NCBI GenBank assembly: GCA_026023565.1
Contig: JAPETS010000008.1
Span: forward strand, 558,001 to 622,000
DNA: 64,000 bases
Direction of reading: 5' to 3'
Source of the DNA: Cirrosporium novae-zelandiae
Taxonomy: Eukaryota
Position numbers and translations under genes: made by a program. The first letter of the stretch is position 1; the number at the start of each line of letters is the position of its first letter. Under the pieces are notes generated by a model. It did no database searches and was not told the origin of the DNA. It saw nothing but the letters and a program-made list of their open reading frames with translations. Shown in pieces: positions 11,336-57,909 of this stretch.

Positions 11336-12067
11336 ATGACCTCCCCAACCTCAACCCCAACCCCAAACCCACCCGCAACGCCCCCTCTCTTCTCCCCAAC
11401 TCTAATCTCCCCCACCGTCGCCTCCTCCCTCCCCCCCTCCTACACGATCCGGCCCCTCGCCCGCACAGACTTCACCACGGGCTTCCTCGACGTCCTCCGC
11501 GTCCTCACAACTGTAGGTCCCGTCTCAGAATCCGAGTTTCACACACGCTACGACTACATGGCTGAACGCGGCGATACCTATTATCTCCTGGTGATCTGTG
11601 ATGGGAGTGGGGTTGTGGTGGGGACGGGGGCGCTGGTGGTGGAGAGGAAGTTTATTCATGGGTTGGGGCTTGTGGGTCATATTGAGGATATTGCGGTTAG
11701 GAAGGATCAGCAGGGGAAGAAGTTGGGGTTGAGGATTATCCAGGCGTTGGATTTTGTGGCGGAGGGGGTCGGGTGTTATAAGGTATGTATGTTATGTATT
11801 GTATTGGATGTTATGTGTTGGGGATGTATATATATTCCTGCATTCGGCAAAAGCAAGCAAGCAAGCAATGTTTGTTTGTTTGTGTTTTTCTTTGCTACAT
11901 GGGGGATCTCAAATGCTAACATATATATTTTTTCTCCCTTTGGGCAGAGCATCCTGGATTGCTCCGAGGCAAACGAAGGGTTCTACGTCAAATGCGGCTT
12001 CAAGCGTGCTGGGTTGGAAATGGCTCATTACTATGAGCCTCCCAAAAGTAAATACGAAAGCGGATAA
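11336..12067 (+). CDS. gna1: Glucosamine-6-phosphate N-acetyltransferase, ~188 aa
   Basis: Exons 11336-11782 and 11948-12067 (intron GTATGT..CTAAC..CAG). Motifs ERKFIHGLGLVGHIEDIAV, QGKKLG and GCYKSILDCSEANEGFYVKCGF. Confidence 0.95.
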   Translation: MTSPTSTPTPNPPATPPLFSPTLISPTVASSLPPSYTIRPLARTDFTTGFLDVLRVLTTVGPVSESEFHTRYDYMAERGDTYYLLVICDGSGVVVGTGALVVERKFIHGLGLVGHIEDIAVRKDQQGKKLGLRIIQALDFVAEGVGCYKVCMLCIVLDVMCWGCIYIPAFGKSKQASNVCLFVFFFATWGISNANIYIFSPFGQSILDCSEANEGFYVKCGFKRAGLEMAHYYEPPKSKYESG

Positions 12068-12080
12068 GCTAGATCCCAAT

Positions 12081-12113
12081 CCTCCTCCTCCTCCTCCTCC
12101 TCCTCCTCCTCCT
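12081..12113. repeat. (CCT)11 microsatellite in the GNA1 3' UTR
   Basis: Direct reading. Confidence 0.9.
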
Positions 12114-12804
12114 CTTCTTCTCCAATTTGGGGGTCACCGCGTGTGCTTGGGGCTACGTACGGGTGTTGTTTTTATTTGGGTGAAGGAAGGAATTAATTGG
12201 TTTGTTAGATGACTCTGAAGCTGCTATGTTATAGGGATGCTACTGCTGGGGTAGGAATGAATGAGGATAGGAAATTGGGTGTGTGGAAGTCTGGATTATA
12301 GAGGTTTTCGGGAGGAAGGGCCCTCTTAAGTCCAAGGTAGGGCAATGGGGATGAGGTCGTCACGATTTTGATTCCGTCTCGGGGATATGGCTAAGATCCT
12401 GCATGATAGAGGTTTGCCTGGAATAGAGGGATTACAGGACAGATTGCTCCTGCAACAGCATAATAGAGAAATAGAAGATTTGAATGGACCATGTGCAGGC
12501 AAGACTCTACGTTTAATTCGTTGCAACGTAGTAACATGAAGTAGGAAGACGCAGTTGAAGTAGAAACAGAACGTAGAGAGCACAAAACCATGCCTCCTGT
12601 CCTCTCAAAGCTGGTCCATCCCATCTTCAAGCAGATGTGTATAACATCATCTGCTCTCGGGATTTGATCATTATATCTCTGATCCAGGATCACAATCACA
12701 TAGCCCCTGCAGTCCCTTAATGCCCAACTAAACCATTCGTAACCATCTTCACAGTCACAGTCTCCGACTATCTCTCCCCTATTCCCTAATAGCGAACGAG
12801 TGGA

Positions 12805-13231
12805 TTATGAGGTTGGGTTGGGGTTCATCTGTAATGATCCATGTCAGCATCCATCTTTGAACTACCAGTATGGATGATTGCGGTTATACCTTTCTCTTGC
12901 CACCGGTCATCGTAACGTTGACGAACCGTCTGGTGTACTGGAGCCTCTTCTTCGCTCGGCCCTTGGGTTGCTTTCTCTTCTCTTGGGGTTCGACCTAGAT
13001 AACCAGAAACCATCATTAGCCAGGTCGTTCATTCCATCCACAATTCATCCAACTGCCTAATTCCACAAGACAGGACCATGCTTGTTTCCCATCCCCATCT
13101 CCCTCACCAGTCCCAGGGGCCAACCACTATTATAGGATATTGATAAGGATTGTAAAATCGTTGAACCGTACCTTTGGAGTCTGCGACTTGACCTTACCGG
13201 CACGGGCGAGAGAGCCGTGCACCTTACCCAT
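12805..13231 (-). CDS. rps30: 40S ribosomal protein S30 (eS30), 62 aa
   Basis: Exons 13231-13172, 12994-12890 and 12828-12805 give [62 protein letters not shown]. Not in the ORF track in the correct frame. Confidence 0.97.
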
Positions 13232-13856
13232 ATTGGCGGTGTTCTTTCGACTGGATTTAACGGGATTTCGATGGGTTTTTCTTGGCTGAGTGGCGAACTC
13301 TAGAGCTTTTTCGAAACGAGTTTCAAGTCAGTAAAAAACGGAACAGAAGGATCCCGGAGTAATTTTGCAGGCCTTTCAGCATCAATCTAGATGATAATGG
13401 TACTCACTTTTTGAAGATTCACGACGTTTGGTGTGATGAGAGTTGGATCGAGGATTGGGGATAATGTGGAATTCGACGGTTGATGATTACGCGACGCTAA
13501 TCTTATTTTGATTGAAAAGAAAGGGCAAGTTGCCCTATGATGGCCACCCCGAAGGGCCGACAGAGTCCTTCTCCCCAAATCAGTTAGGCCAACCAAGCCC
13601 GGAACATTATCTTATCAGATGGTGGAGTCATCATCAGTTGACCTCGGGATCTTTTAATTAGATATCGACATCGGTCTACCCCAGTTAGTAGCTATCAGCG
13701 TTTGAACGGTGGTAGATTCTTGATCATTTGTAATTTTCTTGCCTAGCATTCAGCTGCATATAAACCATCTCCACTCCTCTCGTACCAATCTTCTTTGTTC
13801 ATATTTTTTCTCTCACATTGTATCTACAGTAACTATCGCAGCTCTACTCCACCACC

Positions 13857-14610
13857 ATGCAACTCACCACTTTACTCTCCATTCTCCCTCTCCTCTCTCT
13901 GGCTCATGGGGGCCCCATCTTCCCTCTTCCTAACCTCAACCAAGATATCCTCTCGGCCTTTCTTCCCGATGAATCTACCACTCGCATCCCTACAGTCCAT
14001 GAATCTGCTATCCTAGCTCGCCGTATCCTATCATTAACCCGCCACGGCACCTTCTCCACAGTCTTCCCCTCGGGCGATGATCCCAATCGCCCCGCAGATG
14101 TAGCCTCCCTACCAATCGGTCTCCCAGACTACATTGCAGGTAAGAAACCCCCACCATCACCATAAACAAAACTAACGAGGCCTTCCACAACCCCCAGACT
14201 GCGAAGGCACGGGCAACCCCACAATTCTAGGCATGCCCATCGGCACCAGCTTCAAGAACGCCAACGCCGGCTCCAACTTCACCCTCTCACTAGCCTGGCT
14301 CCCCCCCCACCACGAGCCCTTCTCCCGCGTCGCGCTCCCACGCTTCGCCCTAATCGGCTACCTCGAGGACATCCCCTCTTCCCAAAACGTGAAACCCTGC
14401 TACCTGCTAGCACATCCAGACGCCCGTGCCTGGACACCCGGGAACCCCATTCATGAGAGTCTGTGGATGCGTCTTGTGGTGCGGGAGATTTATTGGATTG
14501 GTGGGTTCGGGAATATGGCTTATATTGGGTGGATTCCGTTGGAGGAGTGGACAGGTGTGCGGGCTAAGGAGATTGAGGAGGCGAGGTTGCCTTTTGAGGA
14601 GGAGGCTTAG
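13857..14610 (+). CDS. Secreted CREG-like / pyridoxamine 5'-phosphate oxidase split-barrel family protein, ~231 aa
   Basis: Exons 13857-14139 and 14198-14610. Signal-peptide-like N-terminus. Motifs PTVHESAILARRIL..GTFSTVFP, PIGLPDYIADC..GNPT, LPRFALIGYL and IYWIGGFGNMAYIGWIP. Confidence 0.85.
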
Positions 14611-15975
14611 GTTAGGAAGTGGAGGGGGAGGAGGTGTTGTGACTTTGAAATATCCTCCTTTGTTTATAATTGATGGAATGTTCTCTCTTTCATGATTTAT
14701 CTATGCAATGGATCCCATACTTCCAACCAACAACCCACTCATCATGTTCAGAAATGGCCATGAAGTTCATGCATCTAGCGTTGCTTGTCTATATGGTTCA
14801 ACGAATATCAGAATGCACATTCAACTCATAAATATTATATATATATATCTATTCACTTCTCCTTCTACGGAATTTATGATCATCACCATCATGATCAAAG
14901 AAAGACAGGAAGAGCGAGAAAAGCCATAGCTTAGTTACTCGCTCCGCTCGCTGGTATACAATTGATTTCATTTGTGTATATTTTCCAGACTTGAGATATA
15001 ACTATCCTACCTATACTATACTATCAGGAGTATGTAACAATAACCACTCTCATTCTCTATTCTCATCCCCCCCCCTCTCCTTCCCTCCCCAAAACCCTTC
15101 TACAAACCAACCAAATCAATTAACTTTAGACCCAAGCGAAAATAGGATATTTACCTACCTGCCTAGGTACGCATATACATATACATGTACATATACATAA
15201 AATTCACCCCCCATTCAAATAGAAGCACCTGAAGGGAGGAAAATATTTATATATATTTATTCCGTTATACTTTGCTACTTTACTTTAACCGCTAGCTAAA
15301 TAGCTATCCACCATTATTATAAATTCAATTCAAATAAAACATAATGATAAACATTTTTTCTTTTCCCTTAATTAATCCGCTTGCTCTACCTATTGAATAT
15401 ATATATACATGTGGTTGTGATGTCTCCGTTGTTCAAGACGCTCTCCCATCCCATCCTACTCGTTTTTTTGTTTCGACTACCTGCGTTCATAGCGCATATT
15501 TAAGATAATAACGATCTTAAAGGGAAATGGAGAGAAAAAAAAGAGCTGCCAATAATATCAGGAGGGTGAGGCGGTAGAACATTGTATCATTCTTGGTAGA
15601 AGACAAAAAGGAAGAAAAGGGTGCATCAAGCACATGTTGGAATAAAAGGTACTTGCTGTAGAGAAAGGTCTACTTCAAGAAGGGCGGAGTTAAAAGTAAT
15701 AGTGGCAGACAGAAAGCCCAGAAGAATCGGTTAAAGATTAGTTTAGGGGTATCTGCTGTACCTTCAGCTGAAATCTCCTAATTGTTTTATTGCCGTTCTC
15801 CCAAGAATGAGAATCTGGGCCCTGACCATGCAGTCTAAAACCATATATTTTGACACCGATATCTGAATGTTCGTAATATGCCTCATTTCAACATCATCCC
15901 TGATTTCGAGGTAGTAGAGGTACACATATCGTATTATCCACCAAACTATTTCGCTGCCTATCATTACTCTGGTTG

Positions 15976-18900
15976 CTACTTTTTCTTCTTGGCTTTATTG
16001 AACCAATCAAGCAGGGGGATGACTTCCTTAAATCCATCGTCGGAGTCCGATTCCATCATTTCGTCTTCGATCGTTGGTTCTATATCTACGGACTCATTTA
16101 GAGCTGGATTCGGCTGTGACTTTGGTTCTAGTACATGTTGTCGGGTGTCACTTGGGTTTGATGCTAGCTCTGTGGCCGGATCAAGCGGTGGATTGAGGTT
16201 TGGGTTTGGTACCGAATTCGTTTCTTGACGGGACATTGGATAATCCACCTTGTGTTCCTTTGGACGATTGAGCGTATTCCCGCCATCTTCGGGTGTTTGA
16301 AGTGAAACTGAAACTGATTCTTGGCGGTTCGGATTTGGTGTTTGATCGATGATGGGATTCGACAATGGTGCAATCGTCTTTACAACTGGAAGAACATGCT
16401 GTCCGGGGTTAGGTATAAGCATCGGCGTAGAGAGCGGCTCAGAGATTGACCGTAATATTGGTGCAGCCTCTGATGATATTCTAGATATTGGGTTTGGAGT
16501 CGATACTCGTGCGAAACCTGTCGTAGAACGTGGAACCGAGGCTGGTCGCTGTGCTTCGGGTGGATAAGATGTGGTATATTGTGGCGGCCTTGGGTTCGCT
16601 GAGAATGACGCTGGGACCGATCCTTGTTCTGAACATGCATCTATATTGATACCTGCTGCGGGTGGCGATCTAGATATGTGTGAGGACGCATTGGAAGATA
16701 AGACTCTGACTGGGGGAGGTGGTTTTTGGAAAGCGTTAATCGCAGCAGAAAATGCAGCCTCGAGTGTAGTCGGGGCAGTCGAGTATGGAGGGAGTGGCGT
16801 ATATCCGTTGAAGGCTCTCCGAGGTTCTGCAGCCCGTTTTGGATATGGAACTTGAGAAGCAGGCACGGGCGGAGCTGTCCTAGTTTCAACATGTATAGTT
16901 TTCTGAAGAGGCTTAGTTGTAGACGTCGGAGGAGCTATTGATTGCTTGGAAGTTGCAGCATTTTGAGGAGTCGGACACTGGGAAGTAGGAACCGGGGTAG
17001 TAAGGGGTTTCCCTGTGTTCGCCGCTCCCTGGGGGGATAAGTGTCGGACTGTAGAACTTTGGGGTGTAATTGCTTTCCCTGAATCCGTAGTATTTTCAAA
17101 TGGTGTGGATTTGATAGTAGAAGTGAAGGTAACGGGTGGATCTTCAGGTTCTATAAGTGTAGAGGTCGACTTTTTCGTTTTCTGAGTAGTTGAAAGATTG
17201 TTCGAGGCTTGATGGATTGATGGCTTTTCGGGATTTGCAGATCTTCGAGAATGTGTAGGTTTGAAAGTAGAGATAGAGGTAGCAAGGGTATTTTCTCTAT
17301 TTGTCGGTGCCATACCAAGAGACGGAGCCTGTGGTGTAGAAACTGTAGGGACAGCTTTCTTCTTCGTGTCTGGTCTCTCAGAAAATGGGGTAGAGCTCAG
17401 GCTTATCCGTGCAACATCAGCCGTGGTTTGAGGTGTTACATGAGAGTTAAATCTTGTTGGTTTTAGACCATATGACTGGCTTTTGGGGTGTGATCTATAA
17501 TCATCATCGTCCTCATCCCTAAAGTCCCGGTGATGCCTCTGTCTCTTCGGAGAAGGCTCGGATATTTCATGATCGCTATCAAGAGCGGGTTCACCAAAAT
17601 CACTATCATCAGAAACAATGAATCTTCTGGATCTGCGTTTCCGACTTGATGTATTCTTTCGAGCATCTTTATTGTGTTGAGTTGCATTCTCTATCATCTG
17701 ACGCAATAGAGGCCACACTCGAACCCCGAACGACTTTGGACTTTTGCGCCAGTCAAAGTCTTTCCTCCAGAGTTCTCTCAGGAACTTCTTAATGTTATTA
17801 GAAAGAGCTTCAAAGGATGCATTTGTTGCTGGGTTAGAATTATATGTTCCATCGGGTTTGACAAAGGTACCGGAGCTGCAAATCCCTGGGGCAGCGGCAC
17901 TAATCAACACGGCAGTAAGCGCAAAGTCAGCAGGGGAAAATACGTTCGATCGTCGTCCATTTTCTGCTCCAAATGTCCTAGGATAATAGTCCGCCAACAC
18001 GGAATAGATAAGAAAAATGTCGTAGAATTTCTTTTCCAAGTCTCGAGTTAGATTCATATCCTCGACGCGTTTTTGCAGTTGTGCCATTTGAGTTATGTAG
18101 GTCGGTTTTGCTCGTCTACTTCCCTCACACTCCATAATTTGGAAGCATGTGTATATAAAATTTCCAAAATCATTAGAGCGGTTGTGAGACGTTACTATCA
18201 GCGTCAGTTACCTTCCATCAATTCCAGTGGTTTCTTGAACCTACATGTGGCAACATTCGGAAATTCGTTGATCAATCTCCTGATGAATTTTTGCCATGAA
18301 CCATCTACAGCTGCAAACTTCTCCATAGCATTGAGGGGCATTCCTTCTTGGACCTTCTTGAAAAGCCTCCTCTCTTGACCTTCTGTTAATCCGTCATATT
18401 CAAAACATATTAATTCTGTCTCGTCAAATCGTCTCTTAAGAGCGGAGCCGATAACTTTGACATCCTTTATCGCGATAAAAATGACGTTGCCATTCTGGTC
18501 ATAACATGGGTTTCCCCTCTTGTCTACCTTTGGCCTCAAAGGCTGTTTGTAATACCTAATTTGAGTTAGTCAAAAGACGACTTGAGAACTATGGAGAAAG
18601 TACTCACCATTCATCATTGTGCTGATCAGTGATCGCGAGCTTTCCCCTCATAAATTCTCGGATTGATGTAAGACGTTGTTTTCCATCAACGCATACAAAA
18701 TGCTCTCTTTCTCCGCCTCGAAGTCCAATCTTCCGTTTACTCAGTATGATTGGCGGAACAGCAAAGTCCCCTATAATATTGCATTAGAATGACTTGATGG
18801 GAAGATTTAGGGAATCTCACGAAATAGCGACTTGATGAGTTCAGACATCTTGGAAGCTAGATCCTAGTAAGTATCTCCTTTGAAATAGCACATCAGAAGC

Positions 18901-20166
18901 CACTTACTAGGCCACACTACGTCTCGCTGATAGTCTGGGTCCAGAACGAGATAAGGGGTATTGAGTAGACCTGTAAATTGTTATAAATTTTAGAAGATTA
19001 TTTTGTCAAGACTTTCAACTCACCTTCGTACAGGTCCCCAAGCTTTCTTGACACTGATCTTTTGGGTGGTAACATTCCCTTGACATTCAGCTGCGTCCCG
19101 TTATCTGTTTTAACTGCATAGAAATCTCCTTCCTCATCATCGTCATCATCATTATCTTCTGCTTCTGCTTCTCCTTCCTCTTCTTCATTTGTTAAAACAT
19201 AGATGGACGTCTCGTTGTTGAAGTCGCCACTTTCGTTGTCAGATTCCTTATTTATCTCCACGTCTAGGTCTACCAGCAACACATCGTCATCATCATCCTC
19301 GGAATCACCTGCGACCAGAGCTGCATTCAAGAGCTCCAGTTCTGTCCTGTGTTAGTCTATGCATTTCTGCGGAATATTTGTGCCTTAAGATTAAGTAGAA
19401 AATATCGGTAGTCATAGTCACGTTTATCGCATAATAAAAAACGATGATTGGCAATGACAAGCTATAGGGATACTTGATGACGGTATCATATTGCATGGGT
19501 AGTGGTGGAGTTCCACATTTGAGTTTATTTTGCAATGGATGATGATAACACAATATCATACAAGGCTTGCAAGGGATTTATTCGAATAAATAACAGGGCG
19601 AATATACAAGGTATCCACTTCCAGCATCGGGCAATATTTGGGCTTGTTATACTACAATGCCCTTCAGATAATCTCTATTTAGGCTTGCAATTGGATCAAG
19701 GTGAAGGAGACATAAGTGAATCTTGATAACTCTAAATGTGAGGTTGGGAAAGTAATCCTCGGAAAAGTGTGAAAACTGACATTCCTTACCCGAATGTTTG
19801 GAGGTAGTACTCTGCGAATATAGAGTGGAAGACATGGCTCTTCTGTAGAGATAGTTAGCGATAATAAGCATCAAACAAGTACATGATAGGTCGAACAGAA
19901 TGTTAAGAGATAATAGGAGAATGAATTGAATGTAGAACAACTACGTAGGAGCAGACACCCTCTCTCTGTGCTAAAGCATTTTTTCTAAAATCGGCAATAG
20001 AGACAACGACAAAAGAAAGTTTGAAGTTCAACACCAAATCAAACCAAGGCAAACAATAGTGGTCTCATATTGCAAAATAGGAAAAGAATAGAGAGGACTC
20101 AGGAAATAATAGGAGATTAAGGTTATAGGTAAAAAAGGACTTCACTTACCTAAGGTTATCCTTCAT
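15976..20166 (-). CDS. DUF262 (GmrSD/SspE N-terminal, ParB/Srx-like) domain protein with acidic N-terminus and long disordered C-terminus, ~1059 aa
   Basis: Exons 20166-20150, 19842-19790, 19341-19024, 18970-18908, 18856-18821, 18770-18608, 18555-18245 and 18194-15976 (3180 nt, in frame). Motifs LDPDYQRDVVW, LIKSLF..VPPII, CVDGKQRLTSI and ERRLFKKVQEGMPL. Alternative in-frame ATG at 19835; the first two exons are less certain. Confidence 0.8.
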
Positions 20167-20323
20167 TCACGGTGAATAGCACTAATGAGACAAGTCAGAC
20201 GAGAAGTTAAGGCTGAGATATGATGTTAGAAAATCAAGCAAGGATGATATCTCATGGTATGCCTCAACAACTTTTACAGATGAAAGGTTCTTGTTAGCTG
20301 TAAGTGGTAATTACCTTACAACG

Positions 20324-20329
20324 ACGCGT
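20324..20329. promoter_or_regulatory. MCB-like element ACGCGT between the divergent DUF262 and GNAT genes
   Basis: Exact MluI cell-cycle box ~160 nt upstream of the first DUF262 ATG. Single copy, so it could be chance. Confidence 0.35.
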
Positions 20330-20829
20330 CTAGTCGCAGGGATATTCAAGACGGAATGTCGGACTTTATTTTGCCGACTCTTTGAAGAAACAAATACCGA
20401 TACGAGGCTAACACGTGATTAGAGTCCTTTCAATCATGCCTCAGGCAATGCACATAGTCTAATTTTCTAGTGGGGTGTAGTGATAATTGACTCATTAGGT
20501 TGGTTTATGGAGATTTTTCTCTTGGTTTTCAGCTACAGCTGCTTTTTTCTGCTCTTTAGAAGCTACTCCATGTCTTTGAGGGCCAACACAAGGGCGTTGC
20601 AATATCATAGGTAATCAAACCAGCGCATATATTTAAAGATTTTCTAACTGAGAGCTTGCTATATCCATCTTCTCTATCTATGGTATGCGAATTTATTAAT
20701 ATATCACGGCTTGTTTATATGTTTGGATTTGAGTATTATAGTGGTTCGAAAGTAGAATTACTTCATTGTAATTCTCAGCCTTGTGTAGTTTTTAAAGATC
20801 TCGGGTCCTGACTTAAACGTCTCAAGAAC

Positions 20830-21608
20830 ATGCCGTTCCAGATTAGCGAAGCCGCAGAGGCTGACCTTGATCGTATTGTTGATATTCAGTTCGCTGCTTT
20901 CGGACCTGAACCACTTCAAAGAACCCTGACACCCAATGGAATCACCACCGACGACTGGAACAAAGCCAGAGAAAGACATTCGAAAGCCATTATTGAGGAT
21001 CCGACGGTGCATTTTACCAAAGCTATTGATATGGAAACAAATGAGATTATGGGCTTTTCCAAATGGCATATCTGGGAACACGAGAGGCCCGAATCGGAAT
21101 GGAATAGGGACGAGCAAAGAGAATGGGGTTCTGGTACGAACATCGACCTCGCAAACGCATTCTTCGGGGGGTTGAGTAACAGCAGAAAAAATAACATGAG
21201 AGGGAAATCATATTGCTGTGAGTGCACCATTTGTAATAAACTACTCAGTTATAGACATGTAATTCTAGAAGTTGGACTCGAGTATATACTCAAAATTTGG
21301 CAAACGTTCCACAGAGGCAAAGACATATAGACTGATCTAGCATAGATCTGTTAGCCTTATGTACTGATCCGAAATATCAACATCGAGGCGCGGGGACTGC
21401 TCTAGTTAAATGGGGATGTGAAAAAGCCGATGAAAAAGGCTTGCCATGCTACGTCGAAGCAAGCATGACGGGCTATCCAATATATAGATCTTGTGGTTTC
21501 GAGGATCTTGAAAGGCTTGAACTCGACCTAGGATTATATGGAGGAAAGGGTATGGATTGCCATGTTTGCATGATTCGGCCAGCCAAGAGTGGAGTGAGGA
21601 CGGTCTAA
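20830..21608 (+). CDS. GNAT-family N-acetyltransferase, ~216 aa
   Basis: Exons 20830-21217 and 21346-21608. Acetyl-CoA motif A LCTDPKYQHRGAGTALVKWG, then GLPCYVEAS..GYPIYRSCGF. Confidence 0.9.
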
Positions 21609-21693
21609 AGGAGACCCTTTAACTGGGACTTCGAAATGGGAAGTTCTCTGTTTTGGAATTCGGTGACGTTGGTAATTATATGATTTCATTCCA

Positions 21694-21731
21694 AGATATC
21701 CAGAATTCAGATATCCAGAATTCAGATATCC
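21694..21731. repeat. 15-bp tandem repeat (AGATATCCAGAATTC) x2.5
   Basis: Direct reading. Confidence 0.85.
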
Positions 21732-23344
21732 ATACTAGCCAAATATCAAATATTCTCTAGGGATTTAGGGGAGCCGCTGACGTTTTTCGTGTTTCGTTTC
21801 TCATGATCATCCGATCTATTGAATTGTATACTTTGGACTGCTCTAACAAGGTTTGACTGTAAGTACAACAACCTAAAGGCCAGTTCCTCACTTTATGTTG
21901 CAAAACCAGCCACTTGCAAGAATTATGGGGATATATCAGGCGTAAACACAACCAAGTATAACATACCATGGGGCAAGTCTGTGCAGGCACTTGTTTAATA
22001 GGTAATAGCTAAAGTTCCTTGCGGGTAAATTCTAGAAAATTTGCCGAGATTCCAATAAAAGCAAGGTGCAGATGCTTGGGCGGCTCCATATATGTGTGAG
22101 TTGTACTTTAGTACCTGCCGTGGGTTTTCAGATATTTAGAGAGGCGGTGGATATTTCAGATTTTGACAGCGTCGCGCCTCGTGGCATCGATCAAGCAACT
22201 TCAGGTTACCGGTAGGGATCTCAGGCTTCTGCAGCTCACCGACGATCCAGATTGACCATTCAAGGCTGATCTGCAACAGGGAGAGTTTTAGGATTAAAAA
22301 CCGGGTAGACCATGTAAAGCCAAAATAGGGAAAATTTCAAGGATCCTAATGACTCAGTGACGATGGTGGCAGGATAGCGGTAAAAAGCCAAGGGAATTTT
22401 TTTAACTTATCAACTTAGTTGCCTTAATATTTAACTTATGAGGGGGAAGACCTTTCTCGGGGCCGAGGGAACATCAAGCATAATTGAATCAAAAAGTTGG
22501 AAAAGGTGGATCTGACTTTATTGATAAATAATCATCATCAACCAACACTGATCACGAGTGGTTACGTGCACCTGGATACTGAATGTGGGAGTATTGAAGA
22601 TATGTATGATATGTAAGATAGAGTAGTTGGTAGTTGTAGTTGAAAGTGATATCTAGATGTTGAATAATTGATTAATCACTCAAGATTTAGGTACCTATCT
22701 AGGTAGTTAACCGCTGTAACATATGTACTAATGTATCATGTCATGTATGTTGTATTACCAAAGAGTTTCGGCATTTCGGAGGTTGACATTCGGAGGTAAC
22801 GGGAGGAATAGTCCGCAGTAAATACACTTTATGAAATACTTTGCTTACCCAGCTAAGTAACCACTTAATTAAAGTACCTTCATCATGGAGTCAGGGGAGG
22901 GAATAAATTATACCTTTTATGCTCCATGATGCAGTTCCAGCAGATCCCGTGTCCCCAGAAACTCTGAAAGAACTTCCTTAAGAAACTTGCCAAACTTGCC
23001 AAACTTGTAATAAGTTGCGAGTTCTGTACAACATCAGCGGTGTACTTACTTATCAACCTTGCTTAGTTAAAAATAAAATAAAAAAAATTAGAGGAAAAAA
23101 ATAAAAAAGTATTATTGGAAACGGCGTGTAAAACCATTTGATTCCTGATGATCCCATTTACTGGCCATCTAGATTCCTCCTGGGCGCTAAGGCCGTATCG
23201 ATTTGGCCCTGTCGCACACGTAGTGAGCTCGTTGGCTGGTTGATTCGGTCTTCTGGCTTTTTTACCTTACCACTGCTAACAAAACCAGTACACCACACAA
23301 CACGCTCGTACTCGTTCGTTCGTTCCGAGCAGCCGTCAAGATGT

Positions 23345-23401
23345 TTGGACTCTCGGATTCTTGGACTCTCGGATTCTTGGACTCTCGGATTCTTGGACTC
23401 T
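23345..23401. repeat. 16-bp perfect tandem repeat (TTGGACTCTCGGATTC) x3.5
   Basis: Direct reading; upstream of the FLC/TRP-like gene. Confidence 0.9.
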
Positions 23402-23993
23402 TCCACCAACTTTTCTTTGTTCGGCTTCGACAGCGTATCCACTCCTTCACATTACCACAGAAATCCATTGTTCGGCTTATTCAACACTAACCAAGTATCC
23501 TTTCCCTTGCCAGACCAGACCACTGTCGTTTATTTTTCTATTGAACACTGTCCATTATTCACTCTTCAACCTTCTTCGCATTGAAAACTACACACTGACC
23601 TGTTGTGCCCCTCCTGATCGTTCTTTCTCTACTTTTCTAGCACTTGTGACCACTGACCAACCCTTGCAACACACCAATACCACCACCATCATCATCACTC
23701 CAAATACGGGAGATTAAATCGTCTGCTCTTCTCAATAATTCGACTAGCAAAAAACCATTAAACATGGGGAGGATATAAGTGTCCGATCTGACTGATCTTT
23801 TGTCCTTGGGCTTTCCGGGAGGCTGGAAAATAGACCTTGCTTCTACCAACACGAGCTACACATTGCATTGCTGACCCCACAACCACCAAACACAAACCCA
23901 GCCTCCAAAAAAGCTAGGAAGCTCTCCACGCAGGAGCTAAATACTCACCCTGGACTTCAGTTTGCATCGATATCACAACAAATTTACGAGACG

Positions 23994-26730
23994 ATGATAA
24001 TGGCCGGTTCACGATTTTCCTTTTCCTCTTGTCGCTTCTGCCTACTACTCTTATTCTTCTTATGCCTCGCTCAATATGCTTGCGCAGAAACACAATATGT
24101 TACCACGGAGGACTCGGAAGGCAATACTGTATACTTGGCAGATGATCGAAGACCGGCCCTCTATACAGGCAATTTTGGTGATTGCATGGGTGATTCCTTA
24201 CTCAACGTGACCCGTTTCGATGCTGCATACTACAAGGATAACATGACTGTTATTTTTCATTTGATGGGGAGTACTGCCGTCAAGAATGAAAGTTTAATGC
24301 TGTACATTGGTGTCTATGCATACGGAGAAAGCAGATTCACTTTAACCTTTAATCCGTGCAATGCCAATATCAACAGGTATATTCTACAGTTGTGCTAATA
24401 GCATCCAGAATGTGCTAACAAACGCTAGTTTATGCCCGATGAATGCAAGCATACCTATCGAGGCCAGCGGTGTTATACCCGTCTCCCAATCTGATGTAGC
24501 AACAATTCCCAGTATCGCATTGTCCATCCCCGACTTTGAGGGGCAGGCTGTCATACGAGTTTTCGCCAATTCAACAGAGACACAGATAGGGTGCTTCTCC
24601 GCAGTCATCACAAATGGTGCATCGTTTTCCCACCCGGCTGCTATAGGCTCTATACTTGGGGTGATGACGGTTATTGTCCTCGTTGCCTCCTTTGCAACTG
24701 CTATTTATGGAGACCACATTCCAACAATCAGAAACCACTATGCCCACTCGCTGTCCGTCTTTGTGGTTTTCGCTATCTTTCACCACGTATACTACACTGG
24801 GGCGCTATCAATGAATTGGCCTAGCGTTTTAGCGGCTTATTGGAGCAATTTTGCTTGGGCTGCTGGGATGATCTACAGTGAAAAAATGCAGAACTCAATC
24901 AATCAGCTTATTGGTAGCAACAAGGGAAATCTGACTATGGTGGGAGCTGCGGCTTCGGGGTCATCTTCGAGCGACATTGGTACCTATTCGATATCAGATA
25001 TTTACAAGAGATCTGTGAACATTTTCCATCGGGATATCAACATCCACAGTCATTTCTTAGAAATGCTGAAGACAAGAGAACTCGAGCATAGGATATACAA
25101 GCGGGATTTGACAAATTCGACTGATGGCTATCAATGGTATGGATCACCAGTAAAACCCGGATTACCTCTGCCCGGAAATTATTCTGGATTTCCAGGTACT
25201 CTCTCCGAGGAAGGTATTCCGGCATCAAACGCTTTTATGACAGGTTTCCTATGGTTTCTCATCCTTGTTGTTTGTGTCGCAGCTGCTGTAGTCGTGTTCA
25301 AGGGGATTTTGGAGGGCATGTCTCGACTTAAAATGATCCATTCTCACCGCTTCGACATTTTCCGAAAGCACTGGCTCGGCTATACCGGAGAAGCTGTCCT
25401 CCGGATATGCTTCATAGGTTTCTTCATGATGATGTTCTTAGCAATTTTCCAGTTCGCATTCGAAGGCATAGGAGCTGCTACAGCAATCGCAGGCATAGTG
25501 TTCATAATATTTCTTGTTGGTATGGTCGGTGTATCTTTCTATTCAATTTACTACCGGATACGTGGTGGGGTACCGGATAGATTGATCATCGAGAGAAAGA
25601 CCAAAATGAAGGTCATCCCGTGGTATGGGTTTGCCAGGGAAAGCGAGAAAATTGATGATGATGGTCAAGGACCAGTTGCCGGATCTCTCCCATGGTGGCG
25701 GTCTCACAAATCTAACACCGACCCTGAACATCTGGATTCTGAGACAAACATTCATGAAAATGAGGATTTTCAAAAGAAATTCGGCTGGCTTGCTGCCCGG
25801 TTTAGAAGAACTCGGTGGTGGTTCTTTGCTGTATGGATAATATATGAATTTGTTCGTGCATGTTTTCACGGGGCAGCTGTTGGGCATCCCATGGTTCAAG
25901 TGTTCGGATTACTTATTGTTGAGATCATTGCATTCATTGCCATGATCACACTCAAACCATTCGAAGCTTCCCGCCTCAATGCGTTGATGGTTTATCTCCT
26001 TGGATTCAGCAAAGTCACAACCTTGGCCCTTGCTGCAGCTTTCGATATTCAATTCGGCCTCAACCGCATCACAACAACAGTCATCGGCGTCGTAATAATC
26101 GTCATTCAGTCAATCCTGGTGATTGCAATGCTCATTGCAGTCGTTGCCGGGGCCATTTCCAGTTACATGTCTATAACCAAAGATAAAGAAACGTTCAAGC
26201 CCCTCAGCTGGACAGGTATGCGCAACAAGTACCTTGCCCATGTTGAAAAGGCAGCTCGAGACCTACCACCACCTCCGCCCCCAATTCCCGAAGAGCCCAA
26301 GGAACCATATTTCGCTGTGTCTTCGGTTAAAAGATACCCAAAGATTGAAGACGAGGATCCTGATAATGTCGTGGGTGGTGATGCTGAGTCTGACACTAAT
26401 GCTGCTGGTTCTGTGTCCTTTCCACCACCCGGCAGAACGGCTTCTATGAGATCTCAAATGAGTTACTCAAGTCTACCATACGGTGCTAGGCCACACCGGG
26501 CGAGCTGGAGCAGTAGAGACTTTATGCATGAAGGAGAGCCATCCTCTTTTGCTGGAATGCATCAAATGAAGAGCGATGGAAGCTTGAGGGAGTCCGTCGG
26601 TCGAGTGCGATCTACATCCAGAGCATCGATAACAGGAAGGGCTGTATCTCGAGTCGGGACGCCGATCCTTGAAGTTGGAGAAGAGACACGACCTCGATTA
26701 GAGCGCGTGGAAAGCGAAGTCCCTAACTAA
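23994..26730 (+). CDS. FLC/Pkd2-like TRP-family membrane channel (flavin carrier family) with N-terminal ML-like domain, ~894 aa
   Basis: Exons 23994-24376 and 24429-26730. Signal peptide; ML-like domain (LCPMNA, IALSIPDFEG..IGCFSAVITNG); ALSMNWPSVLAAYWSNFAWAAGMI; many TM segments; KKFGWLAARFRRTRWWF. Alternative ATG at 24000. Confidence 0.9.
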
Positions 26731-29846: not shown

Positions 29847-32044
29847 GGTTTGCTTGTGTTATTGCTGCTTGTCGACTTGAAGAGGTGAGGTGAGGTGAGG
29901 TGAGCTTAGCTTGTGTGGAGGGTTTTTGATATTGTAGTGGGAGATAAAGATCGTCGAAATTCGTAGTGGTAAAGTGTTTCAAACGAAGTTGGTAGTAGAG
30001 TTGAGCGAAGTAATATGAGGAGAGGAAGAAAGATGGAGAAAGGAAGATGAAGAAAAGAAGGAGAAAAAAATTTGGTAAATGTGAGCATGGTGGTTTTAAT
30101 CTTGAGGTGGCTGGGAAGGGCACCTCGGTGTTGGAGATATTTTTCAGTCACCATCTTAATACTTAGATGGAGAAAGCCATATATCTATCTCTCCTTCTCA
30201 GCTTTAAGCTGAGTACTATTCACCGACTCCCTCCCCTTGCTACCCTCCACCCTAAATGAACGATTTCTACACCCTGACCTAGAAGCACAGTGAGAGAGCG
30301 TGAGTTCAACATACGCCAATGTCCCTCGTAATACCAACCCTAATGTAATAGAAAACGTGAGTTTTGGGCTGCTCAGAATGAATAAAAGGGACAGGTCCAG
30401 CCCTGGAAGTTGGCTATTTAGTCATGCAGTGCTCTTTTCCTCTTTTATCCTCGCTCTTCCCCTTTTTCTTTTCTTCTTTCTTCTCTCCGTTTTGTCTTCT
30501 TTCTAACTTCGAGATTCCTTGGGCGTTTGCTACGAAAGTTGGGACTCTCACTAAAGACCACAAGGAGATTGTAAGCATTCAACCTAACCTTGTTACAGTT
30601 CAAGCATGTTAAACCAGAAAAGAGATGAGCCCAAGTAAAAAATTAGGGAAGCCGGGAGACGGCGTGCCTGCATACTTCTTCAAGTAAATTCGGATGGTCC
30701 CCCTGTGCCTGCTTTCTTCCCATTGCTTATCCATCTTTTACTAATACAACCGCGGGAAGAAAATATTTTACCATGCTTACCCACATCATATGACGACCAC
30801 AAAAAACCATTCTCTCTGGCAAGGTCTGAGCGAGGAAAATATCCGAATCACAAGCAGAACCGAGGTCCGCATGGATAAAAGGAGAGACTCGAAAAATGGT
30901 TTCCCGAAACTTGGTATGAAATATGTGTGGGAATAAGATGCTATGGTGTCGGTTGCCTTGCCTGAGGCGGCCACTAGTCCTACTAGTTTCTTTATTTGTG
31001 AGACAAGCGAACGTGGAGGGCTTTGGCTGAGACGGATATCTAGCAAGGTACTCGAGTAGGTGTTTAGAAAACTTGTTTGAAAAAAGATCGTCAGAGTGAG
31101 AGTGTTAGAGAAATGTCAAGGGAAATAATCACCATCCAACTACTGCTCCATCAATTGTTTCAACCACTAGAAAGTAAAGAGATCGAGACTCGTAATAGCT
31201 GTCCTTGTGAATTTCAAAAACCCGAGTAAAAATTTCGACCCATCAACCATAATTTCTTCTTACGTCCCTCCCAAAAATAGACGTCAAATGCTTGAGAGAT
31301 TGCCCAAAGGTCGTTCGAAAGTCGATGGATGGAAAGGCGAGGATTTTTTGAAAATTTTTTATTTGATTGAACTAACTACTCATCTGTCGTTGCAATCCCT
31401 TGAAAAAAGGAAGCTAGTCACCATTTCTAGCGAAAGAGCATGCCATGTTTACTTTGTACAGTCAACAGAGGGCGCAACCTAAGACTAATCTCTCCTCTCC
31501 TTACAAGGTCATAGGCACATAGCATAACCTCTTCAGATTCGGTCCACACAACAGGCATGCACACGGAACCCTTCTTAATAAAGACAAATCTAACCGTGGC
31601 GAACAGAAAAAACTAAACATTTGGGGTATTGCAAGCGAATGTTCCAACCATAAAAGGACGCAGACAAAACAAAATATAGATAATAAGCGAACGGGTATTG
31701 TATGACACAAGGGGTAGTACAGTGAATAATAGAAGATGCCGTAAATAAGGCAATAAGCAATTGCGCCAGCCAACGCCTGATTTATGCAAAAGCCAGGCGA
31801 TTAATGCCATCTTGGTGAAATAGACTGTGTCTTGGGGTATTGAGAGAAACGAAAAGTAAGGAATAAATTAATGATCACGTAGAACGAAAAGAAACTGGCT
31901 AGCAGCCAAACAGCAGTCATAAAGTCACTAAAACCACAAAATATGTATCCACAAAGGACGTGTGAATCATTAAACGAATAAATAAGTATCCAAGCCACCC
32001 TTCATATAGGCATCTCGGTATACGCGAAAAAGGAGGGGTTTTTT

Positions 32045-33201
32045 TTATGTGGATCCAGGACTCCCGCCCGACCCACCATGGCATCCCCGCTCATGTCTTT
32101 TCATGTTACTTCGTACACTAAAGGCTTTCCCGCATCCCGCATGTGGACACTTGAATGGTTTTTCCCCAGTGTGACTGTGCGAGTGTATGCGCAAGCTCGA
32201 TGGTCGCGAAAATGCTTTCTGGCAGGTCTGGCAGATGTAGCGGTCTTGTGACTGAGGAAAACTAGCGGAACTCGAAGGCGCAATGTAATGATGATGTTGC
32301 CAGGGGTTTGCTTGTCCAGAATGATCCTGCATCTGAGGATGGTGGGTTGTGGCGGTCATTGAAACCGGAAGAACAGGAGGTGGAAATGTCGTTGGAAGAG
32401 GTCGCTGTTGGTAATAAGCCACAGGCGGAGGTGTGGAATGGCTAATCGGATAATACGGACTGGAACTGGATGCACCGGGAGAACTCTGGTACTGAGACCC
32501 GAGGGATGGCGATTGGGAAACCTGCATTGGATATGGGTTGTTGTCTTGAAAAGAATGATGGCGGGGCTGTAACTGTAGAGGCTGCTCGGCGCGACCCACA
32601 TTACCAAGATAGCCATTGGATTGAGAGAGCGTTGAATGAGAAGAAGCAGCCGAAGGAGACTGAGTACTGTCGTCAACCGAGTCCGGCCGCATTGGCGGTG
32701 TCGGTGGTAATGGGCCTTTGGGAGTGCTCACGTTCGGTTGCAGGTAGGAAGGAGGTGGTGGTGGATATTCTAGACCATGTTGTCCTTGATCTGCCTGGAG
32801 CATTGCTTGCTGTAGTTGATGGTGCTGGGATAATTGACGGTCGTCTATGTGATCCGCGCCGTTAGAGCCGTCTTATAGATATACATGTACGACGACAGGA
32901 AACACTTACTTGACTCTTGACCCGGTCCTCCGTTCGCAATGTCGAGGAGGCTTGATATCGAAGGCAGGGAGCACCTGCTGACATCGTCCATTGGGGGTGA
33001 CGGTGGGGCTTGCAGAGAGCGATTGTAGGTGTTGTTCAGCTGCTTTTGAGTCTCACGGGGTGGGATGGCTGTAGCAGCCGTGGCCATTATGGGAGGTGAT
33101 GGTCGGCGGTTTGAAGAGGAAAGATGGTCTGGCAGAACAGGGAATTTGGGAATTGACCTGGAATCGAAATGATCCTCATTCACCAAGCAAGACAAGTTCA
33201 T
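32045..33201 (-). CDS. mtfA: C2H2 zinc-finger transcription factor MtfA, ~363 aa
   Basis: Exons 33201-32910 and 32844-32045 (GTAAGT..CTAAC..TAG). C-terminal [63 protein letters not shown] matches the Aspergillus MtfA fingers as I recall them; LPSISSLL and PPTPPMRP motifs. Confidence 0.88.
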
Positions 33202-33630
33202 GATCCGAGGGAATAAGAGAGAGTTTGGTATGGAAGAACTGCGGCGAGGGGAGGTGATGTCGCACAGATTCAAGCCGTAATATGCGAGATGTTTATGGGT
33301 TAAAGAGGCATCTGAAGGTGATAACCACAAGTCACGAGCGGGAATATAGTAGATCAGAAGTAGATCAGGAGTAGATCAGGAGCACCAAGAAGCAGAATTG
33401 GTGAAGATCAGCGATCCGCACAGCAGTAGTGTATTTGTTGATACTCGACGGTGGGATCTTGAGAGTCTGTCCGAGTCCTTCCAGCGTCTTTAGCGGATCC
33501 AGTTAACGGCGAGTAATAAGACTGGGTGGGATATCGGGTATGTTCTGGGGGCCAAGACCTTTTTTGGATGAACCAGGGAACCAGTTAGCTTTTAGTCGGC
33601 AGTAGGAAATAAGTAGATATGCCATGCACT

Positions 33631-33649
33631 GGGGGGGGGGGGGGGGGGG
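33631..33649 (+). repeat. Poly-G tract (19 G) ~430 nt upstream of mtfA
   Basis: Direct reading. Confidence 0.9.
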
Positions 33650-35118
33650 AAGCATTGGGGACAGGTGCAAGGAGACTAGGGAGAAAGAAGAAAGAATATG
33701 TACTCTTACGGATAAAAAAAAATAGCGAGGGTAGGGTCGACAAGACTTTTTTTTTTTTCTTTTCCTTTGGGGTGGATGCAAGTGGATTTGATTATGCAGA
33801 TGATGCAGACGACTACCAGTCTACCATCAGTCTACTACTACCACTACCACTACCACTACCGACAAGCAAATCACTGGTTGGGGGGGATGGGGACCGCACT
33901 GGCGCGATTCAGACGCCTGGGACACACCTTGGGTCACCTTGGGACAGCTTGGAACACCTGAGTTTAATGGGCCTGGCACCTGGGGTGGTAATGATGGGAC
34001 GAAGAATGTTTGGAGCAAATGGATTTTTTAAGTATGTATTAAGGGTGATTAGGTATAATACGATTCGATTCGATACGTATGGTTCGAGCCGATCAAGAAT
34101 AAACGGTAGACCGATGGAGATGGAATGGATAGACCGATTTAGGGAGATAGCCACAACTAAGGGTTCAGATCCGTCTTTCCCTTGATTCAAAATGTCGGAG
34201 TTGCGATTTAGGGATTTTTGGGGGGGTTTGAGGGAGGGGGGGCCAACTGGCGTGGTGGGAAACCTAGATACCTAAAGGTAATGGGAATTTGGGGGGGGAG
34301 GGAAAGGGTCATTTGCAAGTAAATTCAGAATTCTTCTTTACTTTGTACCCTTTTACTAAGATGTCAATCCGTCACTTAAAAGACCTAAGATACTTAAGAG
34401 AACTTAAGAGCACCAAATCACTGGTCTGACGGCGGTGATAAACACGGAGGTTAGACTCTTCTTGGGATAAGTGCCGGCGCAATGTTCGCAAATCGCAAAT
34501 GGCAATCGAACATCAAACACAAGGTCTTGGTTTGCGCAGCAGTCCGCGACGCCGTTGCAAAGCTACTACCACGAGGCCGCAAATCTTCAAGTGGGTCGAA
34601 AAACGCTTAACGGTCGGTATGAGATACTCCGGCCCTTTTTTTTCCCACAGGTTTATTACCTTAAGGACCCTTGATTAAACCTGATTGCGATAAAAATGTA
34701 AATAAACTATCTATCTATTGACCATGTTGAACGTAAGTAGATCCATCAGGAGAACTATACTTTTTTGCTGTTAGGGGGTAGAAAGTATAGAAAGTGGGTA
34801 CTTTGAGGGGGAAGGGGAGTGGGAGAGAGAGGAGAAAGAAAAAGAGAGAGAGAGAGAGAGGGAGGGGGGGATGATGATGACAGCGACAGCGGGCAGATCA
34901 GAGATGGGTACCTAGGTAGGTTGGTTAATAGTAAAAGCTGAGTACTGCCGTATTGCCCAAGAGAGTAGCCATCTGTAGGCCATCTGCACTCAAATTGGGG
35001 GATGCTCGACTGGGACCCCTTGAACTTCTTGAACTCTCCAACCTCCAACCTTCAAAAACCCTTCGAAACCCTACCTCTGTACCGAAATCCCTACTTCGGA
35101 AGTCTTGTACGGTTGTAC

Positions 35119-57606: not shown

Positions 57607-57909
57607 TGCAAAGATTGTTGTACAACGTCTTTGTGCTCCCTTGTTCCCAAAATAGGTTTGATAATTTTTGCTGTTAGGTGCCTGGGGAGTGATAAAAGAT
57701 TCTCAGGAGAATGATGTCACCACGTGTATCATCAAAAGCTAGGGTTTAACCTTAATAATAACGTGCCAAACGCCCTTCATCTTAATGCCAGCCTATTCTG
57801 GAAAGCGCATTAAGTTAAGGCCCTTGAGAGATTAACGTCACTGTTATACTTCTTCGGCTTCAAATATATAAACTCATAGACTTGATATTTGGATAATCAG
57901 GATCTGCAA

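Follow-up and report, generated by a model that had tools for sequence, protein, structure and literature searches.

A fungal DUF262 protein with the nuclease-less architecture of the Menshen sensor NsnA in Cirrosporium novae-zelandiae

DUF262 is a recurring sensor module of bacterial antiphage systems, including GmrSD, BrxU, SspE, Menshen, PD-T4-2, and Dazbog. Excerpts of PMC12065111 describe the domain in SspE and GmrSD as a nucleoside triphosphatase (NTPase) sensor of modified DNA, state that the helical domain SspE-M is needed for DNA binding, and recognize a class of bacterial DUF262 proteins that have no nuclease, to which NsnA of Menshen, PD-T4-2, and Dazbog belong. In BrxU, residues D98, Q100, Q101, and R102 of the DGQQR loop, which correspond to the fungal DGKQR, were proposed to position the gamma-phosphate, and adenosine triphosphate (ATP) converts an interlocked dimer to monomers (PMC8565348, in the part available). 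The 2015 census of GmrSD counted only three eukaryotic organisms (PMC4619093). Here we analyzed a stretch of 64,000 nucleotides (nt) of contig JAPETS010000008.1 (GCA_026023565.1; positions 558,001 to 622,000, forward strand), hereafter the window, from Cirrosporium novae-zelandiae, an ascomycete of the class Xylobotryomycetes. A gene on the minus strand (window positions 15976-19835, perhaps extending to 20166) with seven or eight exons encodes a protein that combines a ParB/sulfiredoxin (Srx) fold of the DUF262 branch with the architecture of NsnA. By analogy with its studied relatives, such a protein is, on balance, probably a sensor or switch for nucleic acids that would be gated by nucleoside triphosphate (NTP) and would signal through its tail.

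A database search with the large 3' open reading frame (ORF) of the gene retrieved a deposited 1051-residue hypothetical protein (P0001) of a C. novae-zelandiae metagenome-assembled genome (MAG), to which the exons in the window were 100% identical. Against the Pfam family PF03235 (GmrSD_N/DUF262), the spliced P0001 scored 59.9 bits (E 4.7e-16; cut-off 33.2), and the match spanned residues 124-291 and profile positions 5-196 of 199, which is far beyond chance. The exons taken singly gave only 13 and 24 bits, the latter from exon 5 with motif II. In NCBIfam, nothing was found at E<=0.01 for P0001 or for two further proteins, P0003 and P0013.

The alignment of 33 sequences showed that Y135, Q136, R137, V140, W141, D183-R187, F274, and Q278 are invariant. 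Residues 135-141 form motif I (YQRDVVW, conforming to the QRxxxW of PF03235), and residues 183-187 form motif II (DGKQR), whose general form DGxQR was present in 253 of the 265 family members of at least 300 residues. Motif III is given as FxxxN in the excerpts of PMC12065111; in P0001, F274 and Q278 make FxxxQ, and this Q was invariant in the 33 sequences and present in 253 of 265 relatives. DGKQR and FxxxQ occurred together in 251 of 265. In our sample, FxxxQ was otherwise confined to the viral and Patescibacteria neighbors described below, other bacteria and phages having N, and the Q is a signature of the lineage that the fungal proteins have in common with these neighbors. Judged by profile and motifs, the protein fits the Pfam definition of DUF262 except for the change from N to Q in motif III.

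To the sequence evidence we added an AlphaFold2 model of P0001, built with the 33-sequence alignment. The model comprised a confident core at residues ~105-503, with predicted local distance difference test (pLDDT) block values mostly between 75 and 97. Disorder was predicted for residues 1-92 and from residue 504 to the end, except for a short helix at residues 1041-1050, and pLDDT was below 50 at residues 1-69 and 79-92 and in the tail. The core consisted of a ParB/Srx fold and an all-helical domain (helices only at residues 283-503), in which P400 was invariant and E402, R451, R455, and R462 were at least 90% conserved among the 33 sequences. Foldseek against the PDB ranked BrxU first (E 2.2e-6), followed by SspE (3e-4) and then by pNOB8 ParB-N, DndI, and ParB proteins bound to cytidine triphosphate (CTP). 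VIA-align superposed model residues 109..487 on BrxU residues 1..418 (Z 9.3, 298 aligned residues, root mean square deviation [rmsd] 11.7 A), and ParB, Noc, PadC, and KorB matched at Z 7-8.6 over ~95 aligned residues with an rmsd of 2.8-3.0 A. The nucleotide-bound structures of ParB, Noc, and PadC scored Z 8.0-8.6, as expected of the ParB/Srx fold, and an exhaustive VIA run agreed with this ranking. Sequence and structure thus agree on the DUF262 fold, despite middling Z scores and a large rmsd. The assignment to DUF262 made from the letters alone was borne out both by the Pfam profile and by these structural matches, and the comparison it had proposed with GmrSD, SspE, and ParB recovered BrxU, SspE, and ParB chains. 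A homodimer prediction with two copies of the core (residues 100-505) gave scores of 0.23 and 0.28 against a mark of 0.32, run without controls, and carries no weight for or against a dimer.

No nuclease accompanies this domain. Apart from GmrSD_N, no Pfam family matched P0001 at E<=1, and neither the Pfam scan nor the model contained DUF1524 (PF07510), the His-Me/HNH domain with the motif (D/E)-H...N...N. In BrxU, the nuclease motif DHIYP lies at D474/H475 (PMC8565348, in part), and our structural alignment ended at BrxU residue 418, before this motif. No His-Me/HNH fold occurred in the VIA or Foldseek lists for any part of the model, the tail not having been folded separately, and no Pfam HNH or DUF1524 match was found in the other scanned window ORFs of at least 110 residues. 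A helix-turn-helix (HTH) or C-terminal dimerization domain of the ParB type had no Pfam match and no clear HTH appeared in the structure lists, which cannot exclude one. Residues 283-503 conform to the 'alpha-helical linker of 200-400 residues' of GmrSD proteins (PMC4619093, excerpt) and to the helical 'ParBDB' domain of GmrSD-M, SspE-M, and NsnA-C (PMC12065111, excerpt). The sequence-only reading had seen no HNH motif, which agrees with the single Pfam match, the all-helical region at 283-503, and the disordered tail; its premise that DUF262 is normally coupled to DUF1524 is not supported, as nuclease-less bacterial DUF262 proteins are a recognized class in the excerpted text of PMC12065111.

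Relatives found by word-based searches, the query aside, comprised 33 longer and 94 shorter proteins, and the precomputed Pfam domain PF03235 was present in every one. The named relatives were all fungal, save for a tail of weak matches that included one named bacterial protein. At E<=1e-3, a full HMMER scan covering 1.84 billion cluster representatives yielded 12,186 proteins, of which 4,070 reached E<=1e-10 and 961 reached E<=1e-30, and the best 150 of the 12,186 matches all lay below 1e-125. When 71 of these 150 were scanned with Pfam, GmrSD_N was the sole family at E<=1e-4, the one exception being a weak MMS22L_C match; a single protein among the 71 fell slightly short of the GmrSD_N cut-off. 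Named members spanned Ascomycota, Basidiomycota, and Mucoromycota, including Agaricomycetes, Dacrymycetes, Tulasnella, Dothideomycetes, Leotiomycetes, Pezizomycetes (Choiromyces), Sarea, Sclerophora, Thelocarpon, Neolecta, Glomeromycotina (Entrophospora), and Endogone. Among the named matches, judged by sight without looking up the taxonomy, we recognized no genus of Saccharomycotina, Sordariomycetes, or Eurotiomycetes. Some agaricomycetes (Phlebopus, Ephemerocybe, and Macrolepiota) have two paralogues, a form of ~420 residues and a longer one. In the basidiomycete proteins P0013 and P0014, PF05653, which we take to be the Mg-transporter NIPA family, precedes DUF262 (the DUF262 part of P0013 starts near residue 510); these are probably merged models of neighboring genes and not a true fusion.

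All the named members are labeled hypothetical or bear an automatic UniProt name. A search of the open literature, whose reach excluded subscription journals and supplements, found no title or abstract opening on a DUF262 protein of fungi or giant viruses, and the suggestion that the family is uncharacterized in fungi stands to that extent. What is new here thus seems to be a conserved and apparently unstudied fungal branch of DUF262; the domain family itself and the automatic UniProt labels were known.

To place this branch among non-fungal DUF262 proteins, we compared profiles, predicted structures, and loci. PADLOC identified the Menshen sensor NsnA (PDLC03877) as the top match of P0001 (E 3.5e-17), with PD-T4-2_A next and the GmrSD-like HEC models far below, and P0013 matched NsnA at 1.3e-22 over profile positions 44-351 of 385, the helical domain included. 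The nearest ESM Atlas clusters, which serve as a lead only, were GmrSD_N-only proteins of 374-420 residues from Nucleocytoviricota. In support of this lead, the BFVD structure search returned Catovirus (8e-16) and Tunisvirus (2e-15), followed by Yasminevirus, Indivirus, and Hokovirus, and these matches (E 8e-16 to 3e-14) were much stronger than any from the PDB. Pattern scans collected 15 loci from viruses, among them giant-virus MAGs and contigs >300 kb, and 17 from prokaryotes, with ORFs mostly of 328-440 residues; GmrSD_N was the sole Pfam match in all 11 non-fungal DUF262 ORFs scanned, four of them viral.

We then inferred a quick maximum-likelihood tree of 50 cores from 26 hand-chosen fungal rows and 24 locus ORFs of at least 250 residues, eight shorter locus ORFs being dropped. 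All 26 fungal rows fell on one side of a branch with a Shimodaira-Hasegawa-like approximate likelihood ratio test (SH-aLRT) support of 99, so that the phylogeny proposed by the sequence-only reading separated fungal from non-fungal proteins. Within the fungi, an ascomycete group (86) and a basidiomycete group (91) were separate, and the Entrophospora row stood apart. Next to the fungi came viral contigs, at a weak support of 81, and then a Patescibacteria/SAR86 group; the order of these non-fungal neighbors is suggestive only. The nuclease-less architecture is probably ancestral to the lineage that includes the giant-virus and Patescibacteria proteins, because the nearest relatives (giant-virus-like contigs, Patescibacteria, and NsnA) are also without a nuclease.

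In Patescibacteria, an HNH gene stood directly before a DUF262-only gene in two loci (L017 and L018) and an MvaI/BcnI endonuclease gene took that place in a third (L024). The nuclease genes lay at L017:2699-3685, L018:2943-3941, and L024:3128-3922, with a DUF262-only gene of ~430 residues at about 3938. These three MAG loci look like a two-gene module of sensor and nuclease, distinct from the fused GmrSD, and the prokaryotic members of the lineage look like sensors encoded beside a separate effector. In a Planctomycetota MAG (L021:3458-8163), a 611-residue DUF262 protein was directly followed by a 954-residue Z1-domain protein.

The regions flanking the core have a different character. The acidic head, the Ser/Thr/Pro-rich tail, and the basic clusters described from the letters alone are all present in P0001, and AlphaFold predicted head and tail to be disordered. 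The tail of P0001 (~550 residues, 37% Ser/Thr/Pro) contains no tandem repeats. Over the family, tails were highly variable, with a median of 216 residues. A bipartite terminus, typically [VI][VI]DLTSD[DT]E ... LLxxF[KRQ], was found in 13 of 149 tails (12 of the 13 printed, P0001 included; three are from named Dothideomycetes), and it looks like a small ubiquitin-like modifier (SUMO)-interacting motif (SIM) followed by a second docking motif. Several ascomycete tails contained an NNPYA[KR]FK-like motif besides the SIM-like and LLxxF pair. Basidiomycete-type tails often ended in GW/RGG-rich stretches: 44 of 149 tails contained one or more GW or WG and 27 of 149 had at least three RG-type repeats, and GW/WG and RGG/RD-repeat ends were frequent among the family proteins P0035-P0175. 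The NNPYA[KR]FK-like motif, the SIM-like and LLxxF pair, and the GW/RGG stretches may be lineage-specific docking motifs. We also considered a PCNA box at the C-terminal LLDWF with its basic end. This was dropped as a family feature because only 3 of 175 relatives showed the pattern [LIVM]xx[FWY][FWY] within their last 40 residues, and the SIM-like and LLxxF pair fits better.

Scripted splicing of the window reproduced P0001 exactly, with seven exons and six GT..AG introns (Table 1) of 448, 53, 51, 50, 52, and 50 nt in transcript order; the five short introns (50-53 nt) carry CTAAC- or CTGAC-like branch sites. The stop-to-stop ORFs showed the pieces described, with canonical splice signals between them in the raw sequence, and the four motifs quoted in the sequence-only reading were found on the four short exons 3 to 6. 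Homologues aligned without gaps over junctions 2-6, including that of the 36-nt microexon (13 printed of 33 aligned proteins). An exon upstream of exon 2 is needed because exon 2 has no in-frame ATG 5' of M105. Seven junctions had been proposed; the deposited model, which starts at 19835, has six, whereas a model with seven that starts at 20166 is also in frame with good splice signals. In this longer model, the ATG at 20166 is spliced to 19842 as the first exon base, which keeps the frame and adds 8 residues. Positions 19843-20149 form an intron-like stretch of 307 nt (GTAAGT ... CTAAC ... CAG) whose acceptor lies 7 nt before the annotated ATG, which suggests either an intron in the 5' untranslated region or an intron behind a missed first coding exon.

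Table 1. Predicted features of the DUF262 gene (positions within the window)
Feature	Position	Strand	Remarks
Possible extra 5' exon	20150..20166	-	ATG at 20166, GTAAGT donor at 20149; absent from the deposited model
Exon 1, deposited model	19790..19835	-	46 nt; start codon at 19835; exact P0001 reconstruction
Intron 1 (predicted)	19342..19789	-	448 nt, GTAAGG...CTAAC..CAG; unusually long compared with the other five
Exon 2	19024..19341	-	acidic disordered N-terminal region, residues 16-122; first strand and helix of the fold, residues 109-124
Exon 3	18908..18970	-	DUF262 motif I QRxxxW, here YQRDVVW
Exon 4	18821..18856	-	36-nt microexon; helix after motif I
Exon 5	18608..18770	-	DUF262 motif II DGKQR, predicted phosphate-binding loop
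Exon 6	18245..18555	-	insertion, motif III (FxxxQ replacing FxxxN), and first helices of the helical domain
Exon 7, whole	15976..18194	-	exact P0001 reconstruction
Exon 7, first part	17623..18194	-	remaining all-helical domain, residues 314-503; resembles GmrSD-M/'ParBDB'; conserved R451, R455, R462
Exon 7, second part	15979..17622	-	~550-residue disordered Ser/Thr/Pro-rich tail with basic clusters
C-terminal bipartite short motif	15997..16059	-	hydrophobic-acidic SIM-like stretch, then LLxxF, then basic end; also in some ascomycete relatives
Stop codon	15976..15978	-	ORF map and P0001 reconstruction

The neighbors of the gene encode a Lyase_1 enzyme, a GNAT protein, a CREG-like protein, a TRP-type channel, a C2H2 factor, a UCH deubiquitinase, ARPC4, and TYW3. 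A mobile element was sought and rejected: positions 12000-24000 showed neither inverted repeats nor direct repeats at the flanks, the gene is free of tandem repeats, and the neighbors are housekeeping genes. It is thus a resident of the chromosome and belongs to no visible mobile element. Its introns, its housekeeping neighbors, and the grouping of all 26 fungal rows to one side of a tree branch, with separate ascomycete and basidiomycete groups, mark it as an old fungal gene that was not recently transferred, as the long residence in fungi already proposed for it would have it. A defence island was likewise rejected, as a scan of 47 window ORFs, each of at least 110 residues, gave no match to any PADLOC model at E<=1e-5. 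Among these 47 ORFs, no genes for the NsnB ABC ATPase or the NsnC effector were found, operon logic being inapplicable to a fungus, and the PADLOC scan returned no SspABCD-like genes.

Elsewhere in the window, a short tandem array with an 8-nt period (23340-23401; 5 overlapping copies, 30-nt unit) lies in an ORF upstream of the TRP-channel gene. The highest GC content (0.51) and the strongest GC skew (+0.26) of the window occur at 32001-34000, which overlaps the C2H2 zinc-finger ORF at 32048-32872. The UCH deubiquitinase (46751-48529) has an N-terminal ubiquitin-like domain, and the TYW3 methyltransferase gene (56568-57702) extends over two overlapping minus-strand ORFs and is presumably split by an intron.

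The protein comprises a ParB-DUF262 domain, putatively nucleotide-binding (residues ~108-282), an all-helical domain of the GmrSD-M/ParBDB type (residues ~283-503), and the long disordered tail. As an NTP-gated switch, it would bind, and probably hydrolyze, NTP at the DGKQR loop, and the NTP state would gate its binding to a nucleic acid. This would most likely be DNA, which might be modified or foreign, and the ParB-like domain would bind it together with the helical domain and its arginines. As output, the tail, with its basic nuclear localization signal (NLS)-like clusters and SIM-like and LLxxF motifs, would recruit partners, rather than a fused HNH domain cleaving the target. We infer such a switch because of the properties of the relatives, the strict conservation of the pocket motifs, and the three arginines of the helical domain. 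A nuclear location may be supposed from the basic clusters and tail motifs, as may an involvement in chromatin, repair, or genome defence; antiviral sensing is a further candidate process.

Several observations weigh against an NTP-gated sensor of this kind. The pocket itself departs from the published form in the change from FxxxN to FxxxQ. The structural matches at Z 8-9.3 are middling by VIA-align's own note, the BrxU superposition has a large rmsd, and the helical domain alone reached only Z 5.1 against SspE_CTD, a score that unrelated helical proteins equal. A family sequence profile searched against the PDB gave only low-complexity matches to the tail (ZipA, IFT54, and similar), and chains of GmrSD, SspE, and ParB were all absent at E<=1. 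Pfam detected no HTH or other known DNA-binding domain in P0001. The proposed output is affected as well: the tail is not conserved over the family, the SIM-like and LLxxF pair being limited to the few tails counted above, and the NLS-like clusters were called by eye and with a crude pattern (69 of 149 tails). Finally, the link to giant viruses is weakly supported, and the loci behind it were picked by motifs from the fungal alignment.

A more specific version of the sensor, which we consider unlikely but worth stating, is a nuclear DUF262 sensor of foreign or modified DNA in genome defence or innate immunity, kept since before the split of Dikarya and Mucoromycota and recruiting effectors through its tail. 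The tail motifs would then be SUMO-interacting-like in ascomycetes and, in basidiomycetes, GW/RGG stretches resembling Argonaute- or RNA-binding platforms. If true, this would be a eukaryotic counterpart of Menshen- or GmrSD-type sensing.

Other explanations assign the domain a different activity or origin. The DUF262 domain could itself be the effector, a stand-alone ParB-like nuclease, NTP-dependent or not, that needs no partner. By its description, the Pfam clan to which DUF262 belongs takes in ParB-related nucleases, and the Tunisvirus structural match is annotated 'putative nuclease'; this label is automatic, however, no metal-binding nuclease motif is evident in the invariant columns of the 33 sequences, and in the studied members of the GmrSD family, as far as the excerpts of PMC4619093 and PMC8565348 go, cleavage was assigned to the HNH motif of DUF1524. 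We hold a stand-alone nuclease to be improbable, and slightly more so the acquisition of a full GmrSD/SspE-type enzyme (DUF262 with DUF1524) whose nuclease was later lost, a disordered eukaryotic scaffold taking its place. Such a loss would suit the rank of BrxU and SspE as the best solved-structure matches, although this may merely reflect that the PDB has no NsnA-like structure, and it would start from the commonest bacterial form, fused GmrSD making up 862 of 1119 homologues in the excerpted census (PMC4619093). Against it, a scan of 71 fungal relatives turned up no DUF1524 remnant, the nearest relatives checked outside the fungi are proteins of 328-440 residues in which GmrSD_N is the sole Pfam match, and PADLOC puts NsnA and PD-T4-2_A above the GmrSD-like models. 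The earlier proposal that the protein had swapped its nuclease for a eukaryotic scaffold is unsupported on the same ground, the nearest non-fungal relatives found being GmrSD_N-only and the top PADLOC match being NsnA and not GmrSD.

Chemistry unrelated to DNA was also weighed, namely ATP-dependent phosphotransfer on a protein or small molecule in the manner of sulfiredoxin or serine kinase. Sulfiredoxins matched at Z 6.1-6.7 and a free serine kinase (5x0b) at Z 4.3, but both are lower than BrxU and ParB, the motifs are those of DUF262, and a helical domain typical of DNA sensors of the DUF262/DndB type is present; we give phosphotransfer a still smaller probability. A decaying gene or an artefact of annotation, without function in Cirrosporium, would be in line with the long branch of P0001 (1.62), its identity of only 31-35% to the nearest relatives, and the atypical intron 1. 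This seems very remote, as a reading frame of 3.2 kb is open through seven exons with canonical splice sites, all family-invariant residues are kept, and the core is predicted with a pLDDT of ~75-97.

An NTP-gated sensor separated from any nuclease would have consequences beyond this locus. This conserved branch, whose motifs are intact in hundreds of fungi and which has relatives in giant viruses, is a candidate for a prokaryotic immune module retained by eukaryotes. If the protein senses modified DNA, it would bear on how fungi read DNA modification or recognize mobile elements and viruses. If it is a housekeeping chromatin factor, eukaryotes would still have put the ParB/Srx NTPase fold to a new use beyond sulfiredoxin. 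Orthologues occur in tractable fungi, with members in Coprinopsis cinerea, Agaricus bisporus, Pleurotus, and Trametes versicolor, which makes the function directly testable.

Finally, we compared the fungal protein with the known systems that share its fold. Sulfiredoxin, to our knowledge the only well-studied eukaryotic use of the ParB/Srx fold, matches in fold, but it is a single small domain without the helical domain, and its catalytic Cys-His motif has no counterpart in the DGKQR loop. The CTP clamps ParB, Noc, and KorB share the N-terminal fold over the ~95 residues superposed above. Unlike ParB, the fungal protein has no HTH centromere-binding domain or C-terminal dimerization domain detected by Pfam or in the structure lists, and the box II motif of ParB is GERR, where the fungal phosphate loop is DGKQR. 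SspE (6JIV, 7DRR, and 7DRI) shares the DUF262 fold at Z 7.6-7.7, and the fungal helical domain resembles the middle/C-terminal part of SspE at Z 5.1; unlike SspE, the fungal protein lacks a DUF1524 nickase. With GmrSD/BrxU (7P9K) it has the DUF262 domain and a helical middle region in common, but it has no DUF1524 HNH domain, carries DGKQR and not DGQQR, and is only 13-14% identical to BrxU. Lacking DUF1524, the fungal protein does not qualify as a restriction enzyme of the GmrSD/SspE type.

The closest structural matches were the DUF262-only proteins of giant viruses (Catovirus, Hokovirus, Indivirus, Yasminevirus, Tunisvirus, and MAG contigs of IMG/VR), which share DGKQR and FxxxQ. These uncharacterized proteins of 300-480 residues have no long tail, and their sister position is weak (81) and comes from a motif-biased sample. 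NsnA of Menshen is like the fungal protein in that ParB-DUF262 is followed by the helical 'ParBDB' domain with no nuclease, and motifs I and II are shared. Unlike NsnA, the fungal protein is encoded by an intron-split gene, has Q and not N in motif III, and adds an acidic head and the ~550-residue disordered tail. Unlike in Menshen, no NsnB or NsnC was seen near the fungal gene among the 47 window ORFs, and the mechanism of NsnA is itself only predicted. In architecture the fungal protein corresponds to NsnA, with no Menshen partner genes seen beside it.

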